NCBI GenBank assembly: GCA_034226945.1
Contig: CP120459.1
Span: 186,001-250,000 of the forward strand
Direction of reading: 5' to 3'
DNA: 64,000 nt
Origin: Picochlorum sp. SENEW3
Lineage: Eukaryota
The notes beneath the pieces were generated by a model, which worked only from the letters and a program-made list of their open reading frames with translations, was not told where the DNA came from and ran no database searches. Of this stretch, positions 1,998 through 31,691 are shown piece by piece (the stretch's first letter is position 1; each line of letters opens with the position of its first letter). The position numbers and the translations under genes were made by a program.

Positions 1998-2344
1998 AGT
2001 GACTGATAGTCCCCCATAATGGTCCTATATTTCTTTATTATATATCAAGATACCATGCCTGTCTTTTCCGCTGAAAAATCGCATGCAACCAACGCAGAAC
2101 AGCCCTTGCAACCTACTTGCAAACCCGTTCAAACGTTTCTACTCCATTCTCGAACCATCTACGGTCTTCCGAGCGACAGACTACTTTACATTCAACATTA
2201 TAGTGATACATTACTCACAATACCGGTATATCTGGCGGTATATGTGTTCACATTCATATGTTCCTGTGCCTGGAGGCATCTTTTTTTCTTTGAAAAGAAA
2301 AACATGTTCTTGTTTGTATCCATGCGTCGAAAGACTGCCACGTG

Positions 2345-3812
2345 TTAGAGCAAGGATTCGTAATACTCACGCATCTCTGGGTCAAGCATCATCAGAGCTG
2401 TCTCATCATCCAGGACTGTATGTGCAGCCTCAGCCAAGAGATTTGCCAGCTTTGCAAATCTTCCCAGAGCTGCAATCTTGCAGGCGGTGTTCCCACTCTC
2501 ATCCTTGATCTTCAGATCAACCTCAACAGTATCAACGAGGTATTTCACAACATCAATATGGCCATCAAGGCAAGCAAGCATGAGCCCCGTCCTTCCTTCA
2601 CAATCTGTCTGATTCATGTCAATCTCAACAGTTTCAACAAGGCATTTCACAACCTCAAGACGGCCACGAAGGCACGCAAGCATAAACCCTGTTTTTCCTA
2701 CAAGATTTTTTTTATGCACATTACACTGTTGTGTATCAAGGAGATATTTCACCACGTCGAGATGTCCCTCACGGCAGGCATACATGAAGGGTGTTGTACC
2801 ATCATCATCCCAGTCTTCAATATTCACTGTACACTGCTCCAACACAAGTACCTTACTACATCCACATGCCCACCATAACATGCATGCATCAACGCCTTGC
2901 GCCCATAATCATCTTCATAATAATTCAATTCAGCTTCGCCAAGATCGACAAAGAACCTCACCACATCCATATAACCACCAAAGCATGCATGCATGAAGGG
3001 TGTTTTGCCAAACTCATCCGGCGCGTGTATCGCCACCCTATCGCTGTCCATCAGATATTTCATAATATCTATATGAGAATTGCAACACGCATACATGAAG
3101 GGCGTATTCCAGTCATCATCCCGGTCCTCTGGATCAATTGTGCTCTTCTCCAACAAGAATGTGACAGTCTCCAGGTGACCATTCGCCGCCGCCTTATGCA
3201 GTGGATGCTTGTCACAGGGCCACTGATATTCATGAAGAATTCTATCGATAATCTCCACATCCAAGCCAGCCTTACAGGCGCCAGCCAGAAGATCCACATC
3301 ATATTTGGACCTCATCTCTTCTATATGGCGTGCACATGCGTCAGCTCCCACGATCGACCCATCCTCTGCAGAGATCCGCTTGGAAAATTCCACCAACTAC
3401 TTTTGAGCACTAATACCAGTTCGAACAATATTATACACACGCCACGGAACGTACGTAAAATACTTGAAATGGCTCAACACCTCCTCACTTGTAGTGAGTG
3501 TGTCCAGCAGCGTCCATACATGTGTGTCCAGCTTATGCAGGGCACACTTTATCCCATTCTTCGCATGATCAACAGGCGTTTTGACGATACCTTCCTCCTC
3601 CTCTTCGAAAACAGGATGCAAGTACCTGGCGTTTTTCCTACAAAAATGCTTTTTCAAGTCTTGAGAAACCCCAAAGCATGCAAACTCACCCAGGCCTGGA
3701 CCTCCTTCAAAGAGTATGCATTACTCAAATGATGCAAGATGGTCTCCTGAATCAAACCTGGACCAAGCACTTGCTGCCAGACATCCGCCGAAAGCTTTCG
3801 CTTACGCGACAT
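2345..3812 (-). pseudogene. Ankyrin-repeat protein, disrupted (two frameshifts + in-frame TAG)
   Basis: Repeats such as HPLHKAAANGHLETVTFLL, TPFMYACREGHLDVVKYLL, GRTGLMLACLDGHIDVVKYLV are split across ORFs 2345-2881, 2824-3396 and 3397-3657. Likely ATG 3812 (MSRKRKLSADVWQQ). Lesions: frameshift near 3670, TAG 3397-3399, extra TG 2843-2844. Confidence 0.75.
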
Positions 3813-24163: not shown

Positions 24164-27100
24164 TCAGGAGGTGGCAGCGGGTTTCTTTTGGGCAGCAACT
24201 TGTTGTTGTTGCTCTGCTGGATTCCGTGGTTCAAACTGAGTCACATAGCAATTGTAGATGCAGTTTCTCCTGATTTGTGCCATGAGCTCAAGGAAGAGCT
24301 GGTACGCTTCAAGTTTGTATTCCACCAGAGGGTCTCTTTGAGCGTAGCCTCGAAGTGATACAGCTTGTTGGAGGAATTTGATTGCCTGGAGGTGCTCCTT
24401 CCAGAGATTGTCTGTTTGTGCCAAGACAAAGAATCTGCACGCCTTGGCCATCAAACCGGCTTCAAGGGCATCCACCTCCTCCTTCTTTTGATAATATGCA
24501 TCTACGCTGCGTTTCTTGAGATACTCTCTGAGTTTCTCGTAATCTCCATTGCTTACTTGAGTGAGGGACTCGGCAGTGAGATCATCCATCATTGGACAGT
24601 ACTGCTTCATTTTGGATGCAAGAGCTTCCAAAGGCCATTCCTCCGGTGGAATATTGTCTGGAACATTGGCTTCCAGGATATCATCCACTGTCAGCTCTGC
24701 ATAATCCACCATGAGAGGGCTCAAATCTTCTGCTTCAAGGGCGGCACGCCTGTCGGCATACACTCTATCCCTTTGTGTGTTGAGCACCTGGTCGTATTCA
24801 AACAATTGTTTCCTGATATCATAAAAGTAGGATTCGACCTTGCGTTGAGCCTCGTCGAGTGCATTTGTCAGCATGTTTGACTCGATTGGTAAATCGTCGA
24901 TTTGGAATGCAGCCATCATGCCTTGAATCTTGTCACCGCCAAAGATTCTGAACAAGTTGTCCTCAAGGGACAAGAAATATCGTGTTGACCCTGGATCTCC
25001 CTGTCGTCCACTTCTTCCTCGAAGCTGCATTCATATGTATATTGATGAGTATTGGTTCACAATATGCACGAGTGAATATAATGCATGTAGGCTGGTACTA
25101 TTGGTCAGGTGCAATATGTTTGTAATCACAGTTGGGAGACGAGTCTCCCTCAGGGATTGTTCACCACTGGCACAGACATCATTCCAATTCTCCATACATA
25201 AAATGAGATGAAAATACTAAAACTCACCTGGTTGTCGATACGTCTTGATTCGTGCCTTTCTGTTCCAACAACATGCAGACCACCCAGATTCTGGACTTCT
25301 GCCTTCTCCTCATCTGTCACCTTTTTAAAGTCAGCTTCAATCGCCAAAAATGCCTCTCTGATCTTCTGAACCACTGGGTCGGAGGTTGGAGCTTTCTCGC
25401 AGGCAAAGGCAAGGCGTTCCTCGGCATCCAACTCGGCCAACTGACCGGCTCCCCAGGTCTCTACAGCCAAATCAACAGCTGCTTTGGCACATGCCAAACT
25501 TTCCTTGCTCACATCGCATGGGAAAATTTTTGGATTCACGTTCCACGAGTTCACAGTCAGTGGCTTCAGTCGACGAGTTTCTTCTTGGTCTACCAAATTC
25601 ACCACCTTTGGCAGGAGCATTTCCCGCAGCTTGAGCCTGGCCATGAATTCTGGATTTCCACCCAAGAGGATATCAGTACCACGTCCAGCCATATTCGTTG
25701 CAATGGTTACTGCTCCCTTACGCCCACTCTGAGCTACGATTTCACTCTCCCTTTCAACATTTTCTGGCTTTGCATTCAATACTTCGAAAGGAATGCCCGC
25801 GTCTTGAAGCAACGAGCACACGATTTCACTCTTCTCCACACTCGTTGTACCTACCAGAACAGGACGTCCTGTCTTGTGCATTCTCGTAATCTCCTGCACC
25901 ACCGCATTCCATTTCCCAGTTTCGCTTTTGAAGACCACATCTGGGTTATCCACGCGAGATACTGTTCTATTCGTTGGGACCACAGCAACAGGCAGGTTGT
26001 AAATATTGGCAAACTCTGCAGACTCTGTCGATGCAGTCCCCGTCATACCTCCAAGCTTTGGGTACGTTCTGAACAGATTCTGATACGAAATAGAAGCCAA
26101 TGTAATACTCTCATTCTGAATTTGAAGCCCCTCTTTTGCTTCGATGGCTTGATGCAATCCGTCGCTCCAGCGTCTTCCAGGCATGGTTCTGCCAGTAAAC
26201 TCATCCACAATCACCACTTCTCCTCCCTTTGTAATATACGACACATCCTTGAGGAACAACTCCTTTGCTTTAATAGCATTGATCAAGAAGGAAGCCCACT
26301 GCTCCCTTGGGTCGTACAAATCCACCACTTGCAACACATCTTCTGCTGCCTCATACCCATCCTCTGTCAAGAGCACATTTCTCTGCTTCTCATCCACAGT
26401 ATAATGCACGTCCTTCACCAACACGGACGCAATCTTATCCGCTTTCATGTATTTTTCAGAAGGCTTCTCCGCCGATCCAGAAATAATGAGGGGCGTCCTC
26501 GCTTCATCAATAAGAATACTGTCCACCTCATCAATCACACAGAAATTAAATCCAGTTGACCGCAGCACCAACTCCTCTGGCTCCTGAGCCAAATTATCCC
26601 TCAAATAATCAAATCCAAGCTCTGAGTTTGTCACATACGTAATATCAGCCGCATATGCAGCCCGACGCTGCTTCTCATTCAACCCTTGCTGGACCAGGCC
26701 AACATCCAAGCCCAAAAACCTGTGCACCTGCCCAACCCACTCACTGTCTCTCCTTGCAAGGTAGTCATTCACAGTCACCACATGAACCCCCTTTCCAGAC
26801 AAGGCATTTAAATAAGAAGGCAACGTTGCCACCAAGGTCTTTCCTTCACCAGTTCTCATCTCTGCAATCTGCCCCTCGTGCAAAATCATCCCTCCAATCA
26901 GCTGAACGTCAAAAGGACGAAGACCAAGCACTCGCTTCGATGCTTCCCTCACCACAGCAAATGTCTCATTCAGAAGACTATCCAGAGCCTCGCCATTCTG
27001 GACACGCTTCTTAAACTCTACAGTCTTCTCACGCAGTTCCTCATCGCTCAAAGCCTGGATATCCTTCTCCAAGGCGTTGATAGCGTCCACTCGTTCTTGA

Positions 27101-27384
27101 TACTTCCCTCTCGTCTTTTCCGCTGGATCCTGTGAGAATATATCAGTAAGACCTTTGAATACCTTGGTAACTGTGGCCGTAGATTGCAAATTCCTTCCAG
27201 TCTGGTGACGCATTCTTCCCACATGTCCACCGAGTGCCATGGCACTGCCGCCAGCATCACGGCCTAGTACCCCACGATTGGACTCTCGAGACAAGGATTG
27301 TCTTCTATTTTGGCTATTTGATTGACAGTATCGGGCAACACACACAGCATTGGCTGTTCCGTGGAGGTGCTGCTGTCCAAGCAT
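24164..27384 (-). CDS. SECA1: Chloroplast preprotein translocase SecA
   Basis: [71 protein letters not shown] across intron 25227-25025; probable ATG 27384. Confidence 0.96.
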
Positions 27385-27904: not shown

Positions 27905-28660
27905 TCAGCGTAAGGCCCAGGTACACAACAACAGGGTACCCAGAGTAACCATCCCATACGTGGCGTGGCTGCCCCTCGAGCTTCTCAGTGAGCCTTCCGA
28001 CAACTGGGGATCGAATTCTTCGCGTAGAATAACGCCATCTCCGTTTGAATCTATACCCTCCACTGACACATTCAGGCTCTGCAGAGCCTTCATGGCTTCA
28101 TCCCCAGAGCCCAGAACACCATCACCAGTGGATTCGAGGCAGTCAAAATAAGCCCCTATCTGTGCAGGAGAGGTCAGGCTGGAGGTATTGTATCGCTTCA
28201 CCATGGCTTGCTGGCACTTCCCAATGGCATTGAGGTCACTGTCCTCCGATAAGGCACGCCTGAGGTTTTGAACCTTTGCATTCCGTGGAACACATGTCCT
28301 GCCTGTCCCAGGTTTATAGCACTCACAGTCGGGGGAATTCTGTCTTCCCTCTTCGGCAGCAGGAATGTCCGAGTACCATTTTGGTCCAAATGATTCACAC
28401 GTGACGGCGTCACCCAGGGATCCAATGCACCCACCGTCACAGTCACAGCCAAACACGTTGCAGGAACCTTGGCTGCAATACGACCCGACCCTACTTTGTC
28501 CATTTCGGCAGACAGATACCCTCCAAAGGCTACAATCATCGCGAATATTATAACAAGTTAGAAGGTATCCATCGCTGTCCCAGCAGCAAGCTGCTCGAGA
28601 TACCGCAAGCACCGCGAGCAAGGATAACAGCGAGTACCAGGCCATAAGACTGGTGTGCAT
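27905..28660 (-). CDS. Secreted Cys-rich Diedel-like domain + EF-hand protein with hydrophobic C-terminus
   Basis: Signal peptide, CC...VCRNGQSRVGSYCSQGSCNVFGCDCDGGC, EF loop DSNGDGVILREE, C-terminal MVTLGTLLLCTWAL; intronless. Confidence 0.75.
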   Translation of the reverse strand: MHTSLMAWYSLLSLLAVLAVSRAACCWDSDGYLLTCYNIRDDCSLWRVSVCRNGQSRVGSYCSQGSCNVFGCDCDGGCIGSLGDAVTCESFGPKWYSDIPAAEEGRQNSPDCECYKPGTGRTCVPRNAKVQNLRRALSEDSDLNAIGKCQQAMVKRYNTSSLTSPAQIGAYFDCLESTGDGVLGSGDEAMKALQSLNVSVEGIDSNGDGVILREEFDPQLSEGSLRSSRGSHATYGMVTLGTLLLCTWALR

Positions 28661-29249: not shown

Positions 29250-31691
29250 ATGCTGGAGGAGAGCAGGTGTGGCGTTGGTGCATGGGCTTCACGTATCGCG
29301 TTACTCTTCTATCTCTTGATTCTTCTATCAATCTCTGGAGTATGTGTCGGGCACACCGCGGCAGAGTTGGATGATGGCCATGGTGCTATGGAAGATGTAC
29401 ACGTGTACAGCAGGAGGAGGTTGGAACAGCGTTCTGGTTCCATCAAGAAGGACACGTGTAAATTTGATGTAGCGTACACTATTTCATCTATAACCAGATC
29501 AAAATTTGATGCGACAATAATTGTGGAGAATAACAGAGAGGTAGCTAGCCCATTACAGCTGGTGTATCGGTATCCTGATGCAGACAGGGTGGATTTGGAG
29601 TTTGTCACAGGCGGGGTGCTTGTGTCAAAGAGCAATGGTACTCTGGTTCCTATACGGATTAAGACGCTCGATTCAGTGTCATCGAATCAAGATGTGGACA
29701 TTGGCTCATCTGTGAAATTTATCAACTTGAATGGAGGGAATGGACCCTCGCCCTACACGAGTCTTGCGATTCAGGATTTGAATGTGAATGGTGTTCAGTG
29801 TGAGGCTTTGAGAGGAAAAACGCTGGCGTATAGCAAATGTTATGATGCTATATCATTCTTTCAATCGTTCAATGGAAGGCCTCCGCCGACGAATGCTGGT
29901 ATTGAGGAATGCTCCATGAGCTTTTGCTGTGGCATGGTGAGTATGCCAGAGATGAATGTAGTAGAGGCGGTGCCCGTGCCCGAGCCTGCTGTGGAGAATA
30001 CCACTGCATCCACAGGAGATACTGGGAAGGTTGTGTCTGATGATACTGGGGAGCAGCAGGACGCTGCTGCAGGGGCCGAGGAAGAACAGAAAGTGTCTGA
30101 GGAGGACAAGAAGCCCAACCAGAAGGAAGACAAGGAGCAGCAAGCAAGCGATATTCCTCCTGCGGAGCCTGCATCGACATTAAACGAACAGCAAGATACA
30201 ACAGGAATTCAAGAGAGCTCCGACGGGGGATCAGGTAATTCGACTGCTCTCATTGGTGCTGCTGTTGGAATTGCTGTGGCCCTAGCAGCTATTGTGGTCA
30301 TCTCATTCTTTGTTATCCGAGCAAGAAGAAATAGAAGAGTTCAGGATCAAAATCAACCAAGTACAGATGGAAGTGGATCAAGAAGACCCCAAGAGTCGAG
30401 GCACCAATTGTCATTAAAGTCCACCAATACAACTGTGCGGAGTGGATCCAGCATGTTTAGTAGGGGAGCCTCAATTCCACTCACTGGCGGAAGATCTGTT
30501 CGCATCCCATCCGTGGCACAGAAATCAGCTGCAACAACAACGACAAATGTACGTGTATATAGTGATGATGTAGTCACGCAGGCCTAACTGTCTAACGTGT
30601 CTTTTATATATATTCCTCTTCTGCAGGGATGCTCAACATGCACAACCTCAACCCCCAACGAGATTGATGAGGACCAGATACTCACACCCATCGATACTTT
30701 ACCGGACGATCTTCCTGAGGATGTTATTCTTCACGAACAGCTTGGTGCAGGTGCATTTGGAACAGTGTTCAAGGGTGAGTGGGGTGGACACACTGTTGCC
30801 GTCAAAGTGTTGCAGACAGCATACACATCAAATAGCAGAGAACTGGATTCATTCAGGCAAGAAATAGCAGTACTGTCTGGTTTACGGCATCCTAATATAA
30901 TAGCATTCTTAGCAGCATGCACAATCCCTCCAGATATTTGCATCATTGAAGAGTTGGCCGAAAATGGATCATTACACGGGAGGCTCCATGGACCATCAGG
31001 ATCCTCCAATAGATGCCGCCCAATGCCAATCAGGGAGGTCATTCAGGTCGCGATAGATGTAGCACAAGCAATGGTTTACTTACATCCTAACATTGTTCAT
31101 AGAGATTTGAAATCGCAGAATGTGCTGCTCGATGCCGATGGTAGGGCAAAAGTATGTGACTTTGGCATTGCCAAGTTCAAAGACAGGACCTTTGTCAGCA
31201 CAGTGAATGGACAGGCTGGCACACCTGCGTACATGGCTCCTGAGTTGTTTGATGGAGTCAACGCCACGGAAAAGGTGGACGTGTATTCCTTTGCCATCCT
31301 GTTATGGGAGTGTTTGACAGGCAAAGTTCCTTGGGGACACGTACCTAGCCCAATGCAAATCATTTACTATGTCGGCGTTCTTAATCAGAGACCGAAAATG
31401 CCTTCTGCTGTACCTGAAGATATCAAATCGCTCATACAAGAATGCTGGACGAGTAACCCGAAGGATAGACCAAGTTTTGAGGATATTTTGGCCAGGCTCT
31501 TGCCAATGAAATGTGCCATGTCAAGCGATGACACAGTGATGACACTGCCGTGCAAAGACGAGGAACTCTCTCAATCGAGTGCGTCCTCCAGGAAATCGTC
31601 TGAACAACTCAGTGACAGTGTAGTCGCAGAGGCCAAGAAAATTCGCACGCATCCTCTGCCAGCATCACCATCCAATGATAACACATTTTGA
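29250..31691 (+). CDS. Single-pass receptor-like TKL kinase with CBM2-like ectodomain
   Basis: Signal/anchor, Cys-bracketed beta-rich ectodomain, acidic stalk, TM ALIGAAVGIAVALAAIVVISFFVI, intron 30549-30626 (phase 0), kinase LGAGAFGTVF, AVK, HRDLKSQN, DFG, GTPAYMAPE. Confidence 0.85.

Follow-up and report, generated by a model that had tools for sequence, protein, structure and literature searches.

A Diedel-like cysteine knot joined to a predicted EF-hand pair in a picoalgal protein with a hydrophobic C-terminal tail

In print, Diedel is an insect immune and ageing cytokine that has been borrowed by insect viruses. What, then, does a Diedel-like domain signify in a green alga? The window analysed here, a 64-kb (64,000-nucleotide) stretch of contig CP120459.1 of Picochlorum sp. 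SENEW3, carries an uninterrupted open reading frame on its reverse strand (27905-28660, 251 amino acids, aa, with the first in-frame ATG as its start), in which an earlier note made from the sequence alone had recognised such a domain. We find that the encoded protein is homologous to Diedel, that it contains an EF-hand pair, and that this architecture is conserved in a family of relatives. We read it as a surface-tethered, Ca-loaded stalk that would present a Diedel-type knot and may be shed by proteolysis. For this chain as a whole, in which topology, anchoring, cleavage and binding role are what we infer, we put the probability at roughly 0.45.

The relationship to Diedel was recovered by several kinds of sequence comparison. 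The Pfam profile PF13164 matched the window protein at 39.4 bits (gathering score 21.3, E 8.5e-10) over profile positions 31-65 of 76, which correspond to the SD2 loop. A phmmer search of all PDB chains returned Diedel 3zzo_A (CG11501) at E 7.6e-9, with the next best match at E 0.9 or worse, and BLASTP against a Drosophila Diedel-like protein gave 18 identities over 33 residues (55%, E 4e-13). When a profile of 32 relatives was compared with PDB, the match to 3zzo_A (E 1.1e-12) began at the N-terminal CC and extended as far as residue 75 of the 95 in that chain. Alignment of the window-protein family to 23 Diedel-only proteins by hhalign gave a probability of 99.2% (E 1.8e-19), over 35 columns only.

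According to the available text of the 2012 structure paper (PMC3307722), Diedel SD2 is built from residues 1-4 of the mature chain and loop 60-89; four disulphides hold it together, and two of these tether the N-terminus. Eight cysteines of the window protein (C25, C26, C51, C62, C67, C72, C74 and C78) align with invariant cysteines of insect and viral Diedels, and CN[IV]FGCxCDGGC is kept. An extra cysteine pair sits where SD1 has its disulphide, giving ten cysteines in total, as in Diedel; from these positions, pairing of the SD2 type is predicted. The exposed hydrophobic tip Ile-Phe (N-I-F), proposed in the same text as the Diedel interaction site (PMC3307722), reads N-V-F in the alga. On these sequence comparisons, we consider the Diedel-like SD2 knot established and the resemblance beyond chance. 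The joint claim of Diedel homology and extracellular topology is, in our view, very probably correct. The relationship proposed in the earlier note is thus borne out by the PF13164, PDB, hhalign and family-profile matches, including the Pfam comparison that it had suggested.

The second half of the protein is assigned to the EF-hand fold mainly through its relatives. The family profile matched calmodulin chains in PDB from E 4e-11, and 318 distinct PDB sequences at E <= 0.01. The single window sequence was below threshold for Pfam EF-hand families (EF-hand_7, E 0.17), and one of five close relatives exceeded a cut-off (P0004, EF-hand_5, 27.6 vs 25.9). The predicted structure shows the four-helix fold of an EF pair, and its VIA-align comparison returned EF-hand pairs only among its best 50 rows, at modest Z of 4.0-5.6 and a root-mean-square deviation (rmsd) of 2.2-3.7 Å over 53-78 residues of many EF-hand chains; 3zzo was not among these rows. 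A protein-cluster search likewise returned EF-hand clusters only (scores 0.79-0.80). C149 and C174 are conserved in at least 90% of family alignment rows and probably form a disulphide within this domain. From its sequence the domain is an EF-hand pair with a degenerate loop 1 and a canonical loop 2, predicted to bind Ca. Fusion of the knot to an EF-hand pair and a GPI-like (glycosylphosphatidylinositol-like) hydrophobic tail, as first proposed, is therefore upheld by the family profile and hydropathy. The parts of the gene are as follows, from the N-terminus to the C-terminus of the product, with confidence of the predicted structure given as pLDDT (predicted local distance difference test).

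27905..28660, reverse strand: complete coding sequence (251 codons, with the stop at 27905-27907); no intron is needed, all domains lie in one frame and relatives align end to end.
28592..28660, reverse strand: predicted signal peptide, residues 1-23 (MHTSLMAWYSLLSLLAVLAVSRA), ending SRA; hydropathy peaks at residues 10-21, with small residues at -3 and -1 by eye.
28421..28591, reverse strand: Diedel-like module, residues 24-80, with ten Cys (25, 26, 36, 43, 51, 62, 67, 72, 74, 78), placed by the alignments and the family profile.
28418..28522, reverse strand: SD2 knot core, residues 47-81, with the exposed N-V-F loop; Pfam PF13164 match, pLDDT 86-88 for residues 61-80.
28292..28399, reverse strand: extra 4-Cys segment (C88, C112, C114, C123), specific to the window protein within the family; residues 104-136 are mostly at pLDDT <50.
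28250..28261, reverse strand: RRAL, residues 134-137, candidate subtilase processing site; a basic-Leu/Met motif is present in 26/31 family linkers.
27995..28228, reverse strand: EF-hand pair domain, residues 145-222, with conserved C149/C174 and an NTS sequon at 158; family profile, pLDDT 86-97 and VIA Z.
28100..28135, reverse strand: EF loop 1 (ESTGDGVLGSGD), residues 176-187, degenerate by sequence pattern (E at position 1, D at position 12).
28016..28051, reverse strand: EF loop 2 (DSNGDGVILREE), residues 204-215, canonical; aligns to calbindin and calmodulin loops.
27953..27994, reverse strand: polar Ser/Gly-rich spacer, residues 223-236, candidate GPI attachment region by eye (e.g. S230-R-G).
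27908..27952, reverse strand: C-terminal hydrophobic tail, residues 237-251 (MVTLGTLLLCTWALR), by hydropathy; a comparable tail is found in 27/33 family sequences.

The features noticed at the outset (signal peptide, CC-x9-C-x6-C, 4-Cys segment, RRAL, EF loops, hydrophobic C-terminus and lack of introns) are all present where they had been placed. The cysteines of the knot run as CC(25,26)-x9-C36-x6-C43, C51 and then VCRNGQSRVGSYCSQGSCNVFGCDCDGGC through C78, so that C25-C78 occupies 28588-28427. The signal is predicted to be cut before A24-C25-C26, and an xCC mature start is also seen in relatives and in insect and viral Diedels. Hydropathy shows just two hydrophobic stretches, one at each end of the chain (residues 10-21 and 240-245 above threshold). 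The number of cysteines outside the tail is even (16), and the NxT sequon is conserved.

The architecture is not peculiar to this gene. A word-based search found five proteins, each 301-325 aa long and carrying PF13164, whose identity to the window protein is 29-36% across 70-87% of its length. In an exhaustive profile search, 443 of 1.84 billion cluster representatives matched at E <= 0.001, 18 of them at E <= 1e-30. From the listed profile matches, 26 that span knot and EF region were taken and, with the first matches and one cluster member, 33 sequences were scanned. The full architecture recurs in no fewer than 31 clusters at 50% identity (the five close relatives and about 26 further representatives). 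By pattern, at least one EF loop is present in 33/33 sequences and two are present in 19/33. After the signal and xCC(W/F)D comes a Cys-rich insert that varies, then the knot with the basic-Leu motif behind it; C-Q..M..Y-N-T..L leads on to an EF pair whose end reads D-P-x-E-F-D-x-x-L, and a Ser-rich spacer and the tail complete the conserved order. Within this family the window protein is an outlier, having a 4-Cys insert after the knot and no Cys-rich insert before it.

Most family members come from metagenomic or run assemblies. GenBank WPT18231.1 also belongs to the family and is labelled 'Protein Diedel [Picochlorum sp. SENEW3]', apparently by automatic annotation. In the literature searched, we found no paper describing an algal Diedel member, which agrees with the statement in the earlier note that no characterised green-algal member was known, although the name had already been given, apparently automatically. 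Literature that pairs Diedel with EF-hand concerned, in the text available, only insect venom, setae or saliva. In another protein search, a profile from the 32-row alignment gave five matches, none of them named, and the knot region gave no candidates among shorter proteins. The window contains one knot only, with no second copy elsewhere in the 64 kb. A relative on a 4.6-kb metagenome contig (L006) has different neighbours and shows no synteny with the window; on that contig, the gene after an intronless family member with a tail (L006:1278-2225, forward strand) encodes a trypsin-like serine protease (IIGG...GDSGGP). The window gene represents an undescribed architecture within a known domain family, one that databases already contain.

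The linker between the knot and the EF domain is otherwise unconserved among family members and contains a motif. A dibasic pair with Leu or Met within one residue was found in this linker in 26 of 31 family representatives (the 33 scanned sequences minus the bacterial P0057 and the near-duplicate P0158), compared with 2.7 of 31 expected from composition-preserving shuffles of each linker, an expectation that ignores shared descent. The variants are RRLL, RKLL, RRKL, RRLM and RKLM, with RRAL in the window protein. The consensus for the subtilase S1P is wider than these variants. In the portion available of a study of plant subtilases, RKLL, RRKL and RRLL are processing motifs of plant pro-PMEs (pro-pectin-methylesterases), and SBT6.1/S1P cuts the RALF23 precursor (bioRxiv 10.1101/2022.07.28.501549). 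The earlier suggestion that cleavage at RRxL could release the knot gains support because a basic-Leu/Met motif recurs in the same linker in 26/31 representatives against an expectation of 2.7; a substitution at the site and its position, both described below, count against it. Whether this site is cut is, in our judgement, close to an even bet.

In the surface-stalk reading, the protein would enter the secretory pathway and lose its signal, leaving a mature N-terminus A-C-C. Eight disulphides would form, tying the N-terminus into a knot of the Diedel SD2 type, and the conserved NTS sequon at residue 158 would be N-glycosylated. A flexible, Cys-containing linker would connect the knot to the disulphide-braced EF-hand pair, which outside the cell would be constitutively Ca-loaded and serve as a rigid stalk or base, or as a Ca-dependent module. 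At the far end of the linker, the hydrophobic N-V-F loop is the likely binding tip for a partner. The C-terminal signal and its small-residue spacer would most likely be exchanged for a GPI anchor, tethering the protein to the outer face of the plasma membrane. Finally, a secretory subtilase of the S1P or kexin kind may cut the basic-Leu site (RRAL), yielding a shed knot or a two-chain form.

Several observations weigh against this reading, some concerning the knot and others the cleavage site. The SD1 half of Diedel gave no detectable match from the single sequence in the Pfam PF13164 scan. In the AlphaFold2 model, built from 65 aligned sequences (mean pLDDT 74.7), residues 61-80 reach pLDDT 86-88 and the EF domain 86-97, while values are 61-74 for residues 31-60 and mostly <50 for residues 104-136; a model from six sequences only (pLDDT 45) was not used for the knot. 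The SD1-like part of the model consists of two strands (34-39 and 45-50) and a short helix (93-98), at pLDDT 61-74. Comparison of this model with the Diedel structure, proposed as a check in the earlier note, gave a divided result. Diedels ranked at the top, with 3zzr first (E 0.031) and 3zzo third (E 0.059) in a Foldseek search of PDB (template-modelling score, TM, 0.33-0.34; for 3zzo, TM 0.34 and rmsd 3.6 Å over 52 columns) and a viral Diedel, Xestia c-nigrum granulovirus (XecnGV) ORF106, first in BFVD (E 0.013, 41% identity over 64 columns), but none of the Foldseek matches reached E 0.001, so structural support for the Diedel part is weak.

As for the cleavage site, RRAL lies 55 residues past the knot in the window protein, compared with about 5-10 in most relatives, and the motif is absent from 5/31 relatives. 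In near-identical environmental DNA, moreover, a C>A change at 28259 causes R134S (RRAL to SRAL) and removes the dibasic pair. This change was seen in two low-depth runs of one study, in ~99% identical DNA at a depth of ~3 with one contig per run; it is one of three coding-sequence differences, the other two being synonymous. The four runs compared with the window were DNA contigs and showed neither transcript ends nor joints.

The main rival keeps the same protein and does without cleavage. Here a surface protein is never cut, the motif is structural or contacts a ligand (a basic patch where a helix begins would be one example), and a single Ca-dependent adhesion or recognition unit is made up of knot and EF pair together. 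The model puts RRAL inside a short helix (131-137), its whole-chain pTM (predicted TM) of 0.69 suggests that the parts may pack together, R134S would make the dibasic pair dispensable, and a minimal bacterial form (L019, described below) has no such motif between its knot and EF pair. However, the helix is predicted at pLDDT <50, and the conservation of the motif in an otherwise variable linker, together with its match to plant processing motifs, is harder to reconcile with this alternative, which we regard as rather unlikely.

The surface-stalk reading also depends on the C-terminus. The hydrophobic stretch there is ~14 residues long (237-250), stops one residue short of the stop codon and is preceded by the Ser/Gly spacer. 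A signal peptide, a short C-terminal hydrophobic signal and no cytoplasmic tail make up a GPI-type layout by hydropathy, and S229/S230-R-G232 is suitable by eye as a candidate omega site. In the family, the last 15 residues have a mean hydropathy >1 in 27/33 sequences. A literature search on GPI in green algae yielded nothing useful. A GPI anchor is somewhat favoured over a transmembrane helix. Were the C-terminus a transmembrane anchor instead, the protein could be a luminal Ca-binding resident of the secretory pathway or of a vacuole-like compartment. MCFD2 and similar luminal EF-hand pair proteins are among the fold matches (Z 4.0-4.3), as this would lead one to expect, but a ~14-residue tail after a Ser/Gly spacer has the usual shape of a GPI signal and is short for a stable helix, and the C-terminus has no visible retention motif. 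We consider a luminal resident improbable.

A separate question is where the knot came from. The available text of the 2012 structure paper places Diedel in drosophilids, an aphid and baculo/ascoviruses only (PMC3307722), and the frame of insects and their viruses adopted in the earlier note proved too narrow, given members from Branchiostoma, bacterial metagenome-assembled genomes (MAGs) and fungi. The Branchiostoma protein (XP_078609212.1, P0136, 184 aa) has a signal, xCC, the knot and an EF pair, and no tail. A signal, xCC, the SD2 knot and an EF pair are also found in an alphaproteobacterial MAG protein (P0057 on the 456-kb contig L020, 2698-3396, forward strand) and in a Thermoanaerobaculia MAG protein (open reading frame 2287-2862, forward strand, on the 4.6-kb contig L019), the bacterial origin being less sure for L019 than for L020. 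Both bacterial EF pairs end IEP.EFD..L. In hhalign comparison with the algal family, L019 aligned over 127 columns and P0136 over 169 (probability 99.1-99.3%). These two MAG loci are apparently prokaryotic representatives of a domain whose descriptions have been confined to insects and insect viruses. Another of the three matches of the genome-contig scan, L021, was not counted, having no Diedel-like open reading frame of at least 80 aa. Among fungi, PF13164 proteins with a signal peptide include Tricholoma matsutake Trima_09940 (158 aa; PMC6980582, in the text available). The knot has another fusion partner in Aphis gossypii, where it is joined to a region named LRAT domain by UniRef (P0090 / P0180, 225 aa).

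By sequence matching, then, the knot occurs in bacteria, fungi, algae, animals and insect viruses, and the combination of knot and EF pair recurs across kingdoms. Since that combination is found in other algae, amphioxus and bacteria, the knot is far wider, and probably far older, than insect immunity. A tree of the knot (65 rows, 50 columns, 30 of 61 inner branches open, with P0057 entered as an algal EF form though bacterial) places EF-fused sequences together more than expected by chance (9 changes vs 22.1 in shuffles), and they form one clade in 0% of 200 bootstrap trees. On this weak tree the window protein groups with the EF-fused P0023 and P0016 (support 84/86); on a short-domain tree, P0136 groups with P0096 (99/88). 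The phylogeny called for in the earlier note puts the window protein among EF-fused members, but the 50-column tree gives no transfer direction, and age and mobility are both compatible with the spread.

If the alga had recently acquired its module from an insect or an insect virus, high core identity to insect and granulovirus Diedels (55% over 33 residues) and a patchy family would be natural consequences, and both are seen. That account has to contend with the at least 31 same-architecture relatives at 50% clustering, a Picochlorum protein among them, with the knot and EF-hand forms in bacteria and amphioxus, and with the position of the window protein beside P0023 and P0016. In addition, when 2.9 million viral contigs were scanned, stand-alone Diedels turned up at three loci only, all of granulovirus type, and no algal virus was among the carriers. 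We judge a recent transfer from insect to alga very unlikely. Of the earlier proposal of a horizontally acquired or ancient patchy module, patchiness stands; a lone acquisition does not, since a whole family has the same architecture, and an insect source is unlikely. That the frame is not a real gene and the resemblance only a chance cysteine pattern is negligibly probable, given Diedel matches at E-values of 1e-9 to 1e-19, full-length relatives down to E 5.7e-24, and near-identical DNA in which two of three coding differences are synonymous.

The function of fly Diedel does not carry over directly. Drosophila Diedel is, in the text available, an integrin ligand that acts via an RGD directly after the knot (PMC9116668). 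RGD was found in 0/39 family sequences, and at the corresponding position the window protein reads LGD, so that, judged by this motif, it is not an integrin ligand like fly Diedel. The 'cytokine' label is not transferable because RGD is missing throughout the family, and the term 'cytokine-like' used in the earlier note finds no support. Nor is the window protein small and free like the cytokine, being 251 aa long with an EF pair and a hydrophobic tail. Because RGD is missing, the partner of the knot may be of a more general kind than a receptor of insects.

What appears to be really conserved in Diedel is the SD2 knot with its hydrophobic tip, here a probable surface module of marine green algae that is habitually paired with an EF-hand pair. 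For the Diedel field, the window family offers an outgroup. For picoalgae, whose molecules of cell-cell and virus-host recognition are mostly unknown, it offers a candidate surface or shed ligand, and shedding is a hypothesis that can be tested directly because the plant-type processing motif is conserved. A bolder version, which we think distinctly doubtful, is that the knot and EF pair are an old extracellular cassette of bacteria, green algae and chordates, that insect and viral Diedel is derived from it by loss of the EF-hand, and that the algal knot is shed from a GPI stalk, in the way RALF is made, as a diffusible cell-to-cell or anti-viral/anti-grazer signal.

The gene lies in a window of ~47% G+C with densely packed long open reading frames. 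Divergently oriented and ~590 bp away is the gene of a 445-aa protein (29250-30587, forward strand) which by eye combines a signal peptide and a single membrane helix with a Ser/Glu/Lys-rich region and a tail rich in Ser; no Pfam family was above threshold for it (DUF4690, 20.3 bits vs a cut-off of 30.7). The downstream neighbour (24164-27384, reverse strand) is a nuclear plastid-type SecA gene of two exons, with the break at ~25030-25150 and an N-terminal extension. To our knowledge, SecA is nuclear only in the green lineage. The base composition, dense genes and two-exon nuclear SecA are consistent with a compact green-algal nuclear genome.

Set against known systems, the window protein resembles plant pro-proteins cut by subtilases (pro-PMEs and RALF23) in having the same types of tetrapeptide in an unstructured stretch that links two modules of a secreted chain. 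In the plant cases the product is the part after the site, and the window protein may be likened to them by analogy only. Trima_09940 shares the PF13164 domain and signal peptide outside animals, and differs in its length of 158 aa, with no EF-hand or anchor reported in the text available (PMC6980582). The Diedel homologues of granuloviruses, ascoviruses and entomopoxviruses have the same knot, and two of them (L001 and L003) start KCC after the signal peptide, but they are stand-alone proteins of 90-122 aa. Drosophila Diedel (CG11501; 3ZZO/3ZZR; PF13164) likewise has a signal peptide and xCC, its ten Cys follow one another as in the window protein, and its SD2 loop (C-x-[DN]G...G-x-YC-x-G-x-CN-[IV]-FGC-x-CDGGC), N-[IV]-F tip included, is almost the same. 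The fly protein, however, is free and 115 aa long, with RGD and the complete ferredoxin-like SD1 (four strands and a helix), whereas the window protein has a shortened SD1-like hairpin in the model and adds a linker, an EF-hand pair and a membrane tail. The minimal knot and EF proteins (P0136, L019 and P0057) share the signal, the xCC start, the SD2 knot and, after it, an EF pair that closes with I-[ED]-P-x-E-[FY]-D-x-x-L, and differ in being 184-199 aa long, in lacking the hydrophobic tail and the conserved CQ helix, and in belonging to other kingdoms. The metagenomic family (P0002-P0062) and WPT18231.1 are 22-42% identical to the window protein over aligned columns and mostly carry a large Cys-rich insert before the knot, yet they share its full architecture, from the signal through to the hydrophobic tail.

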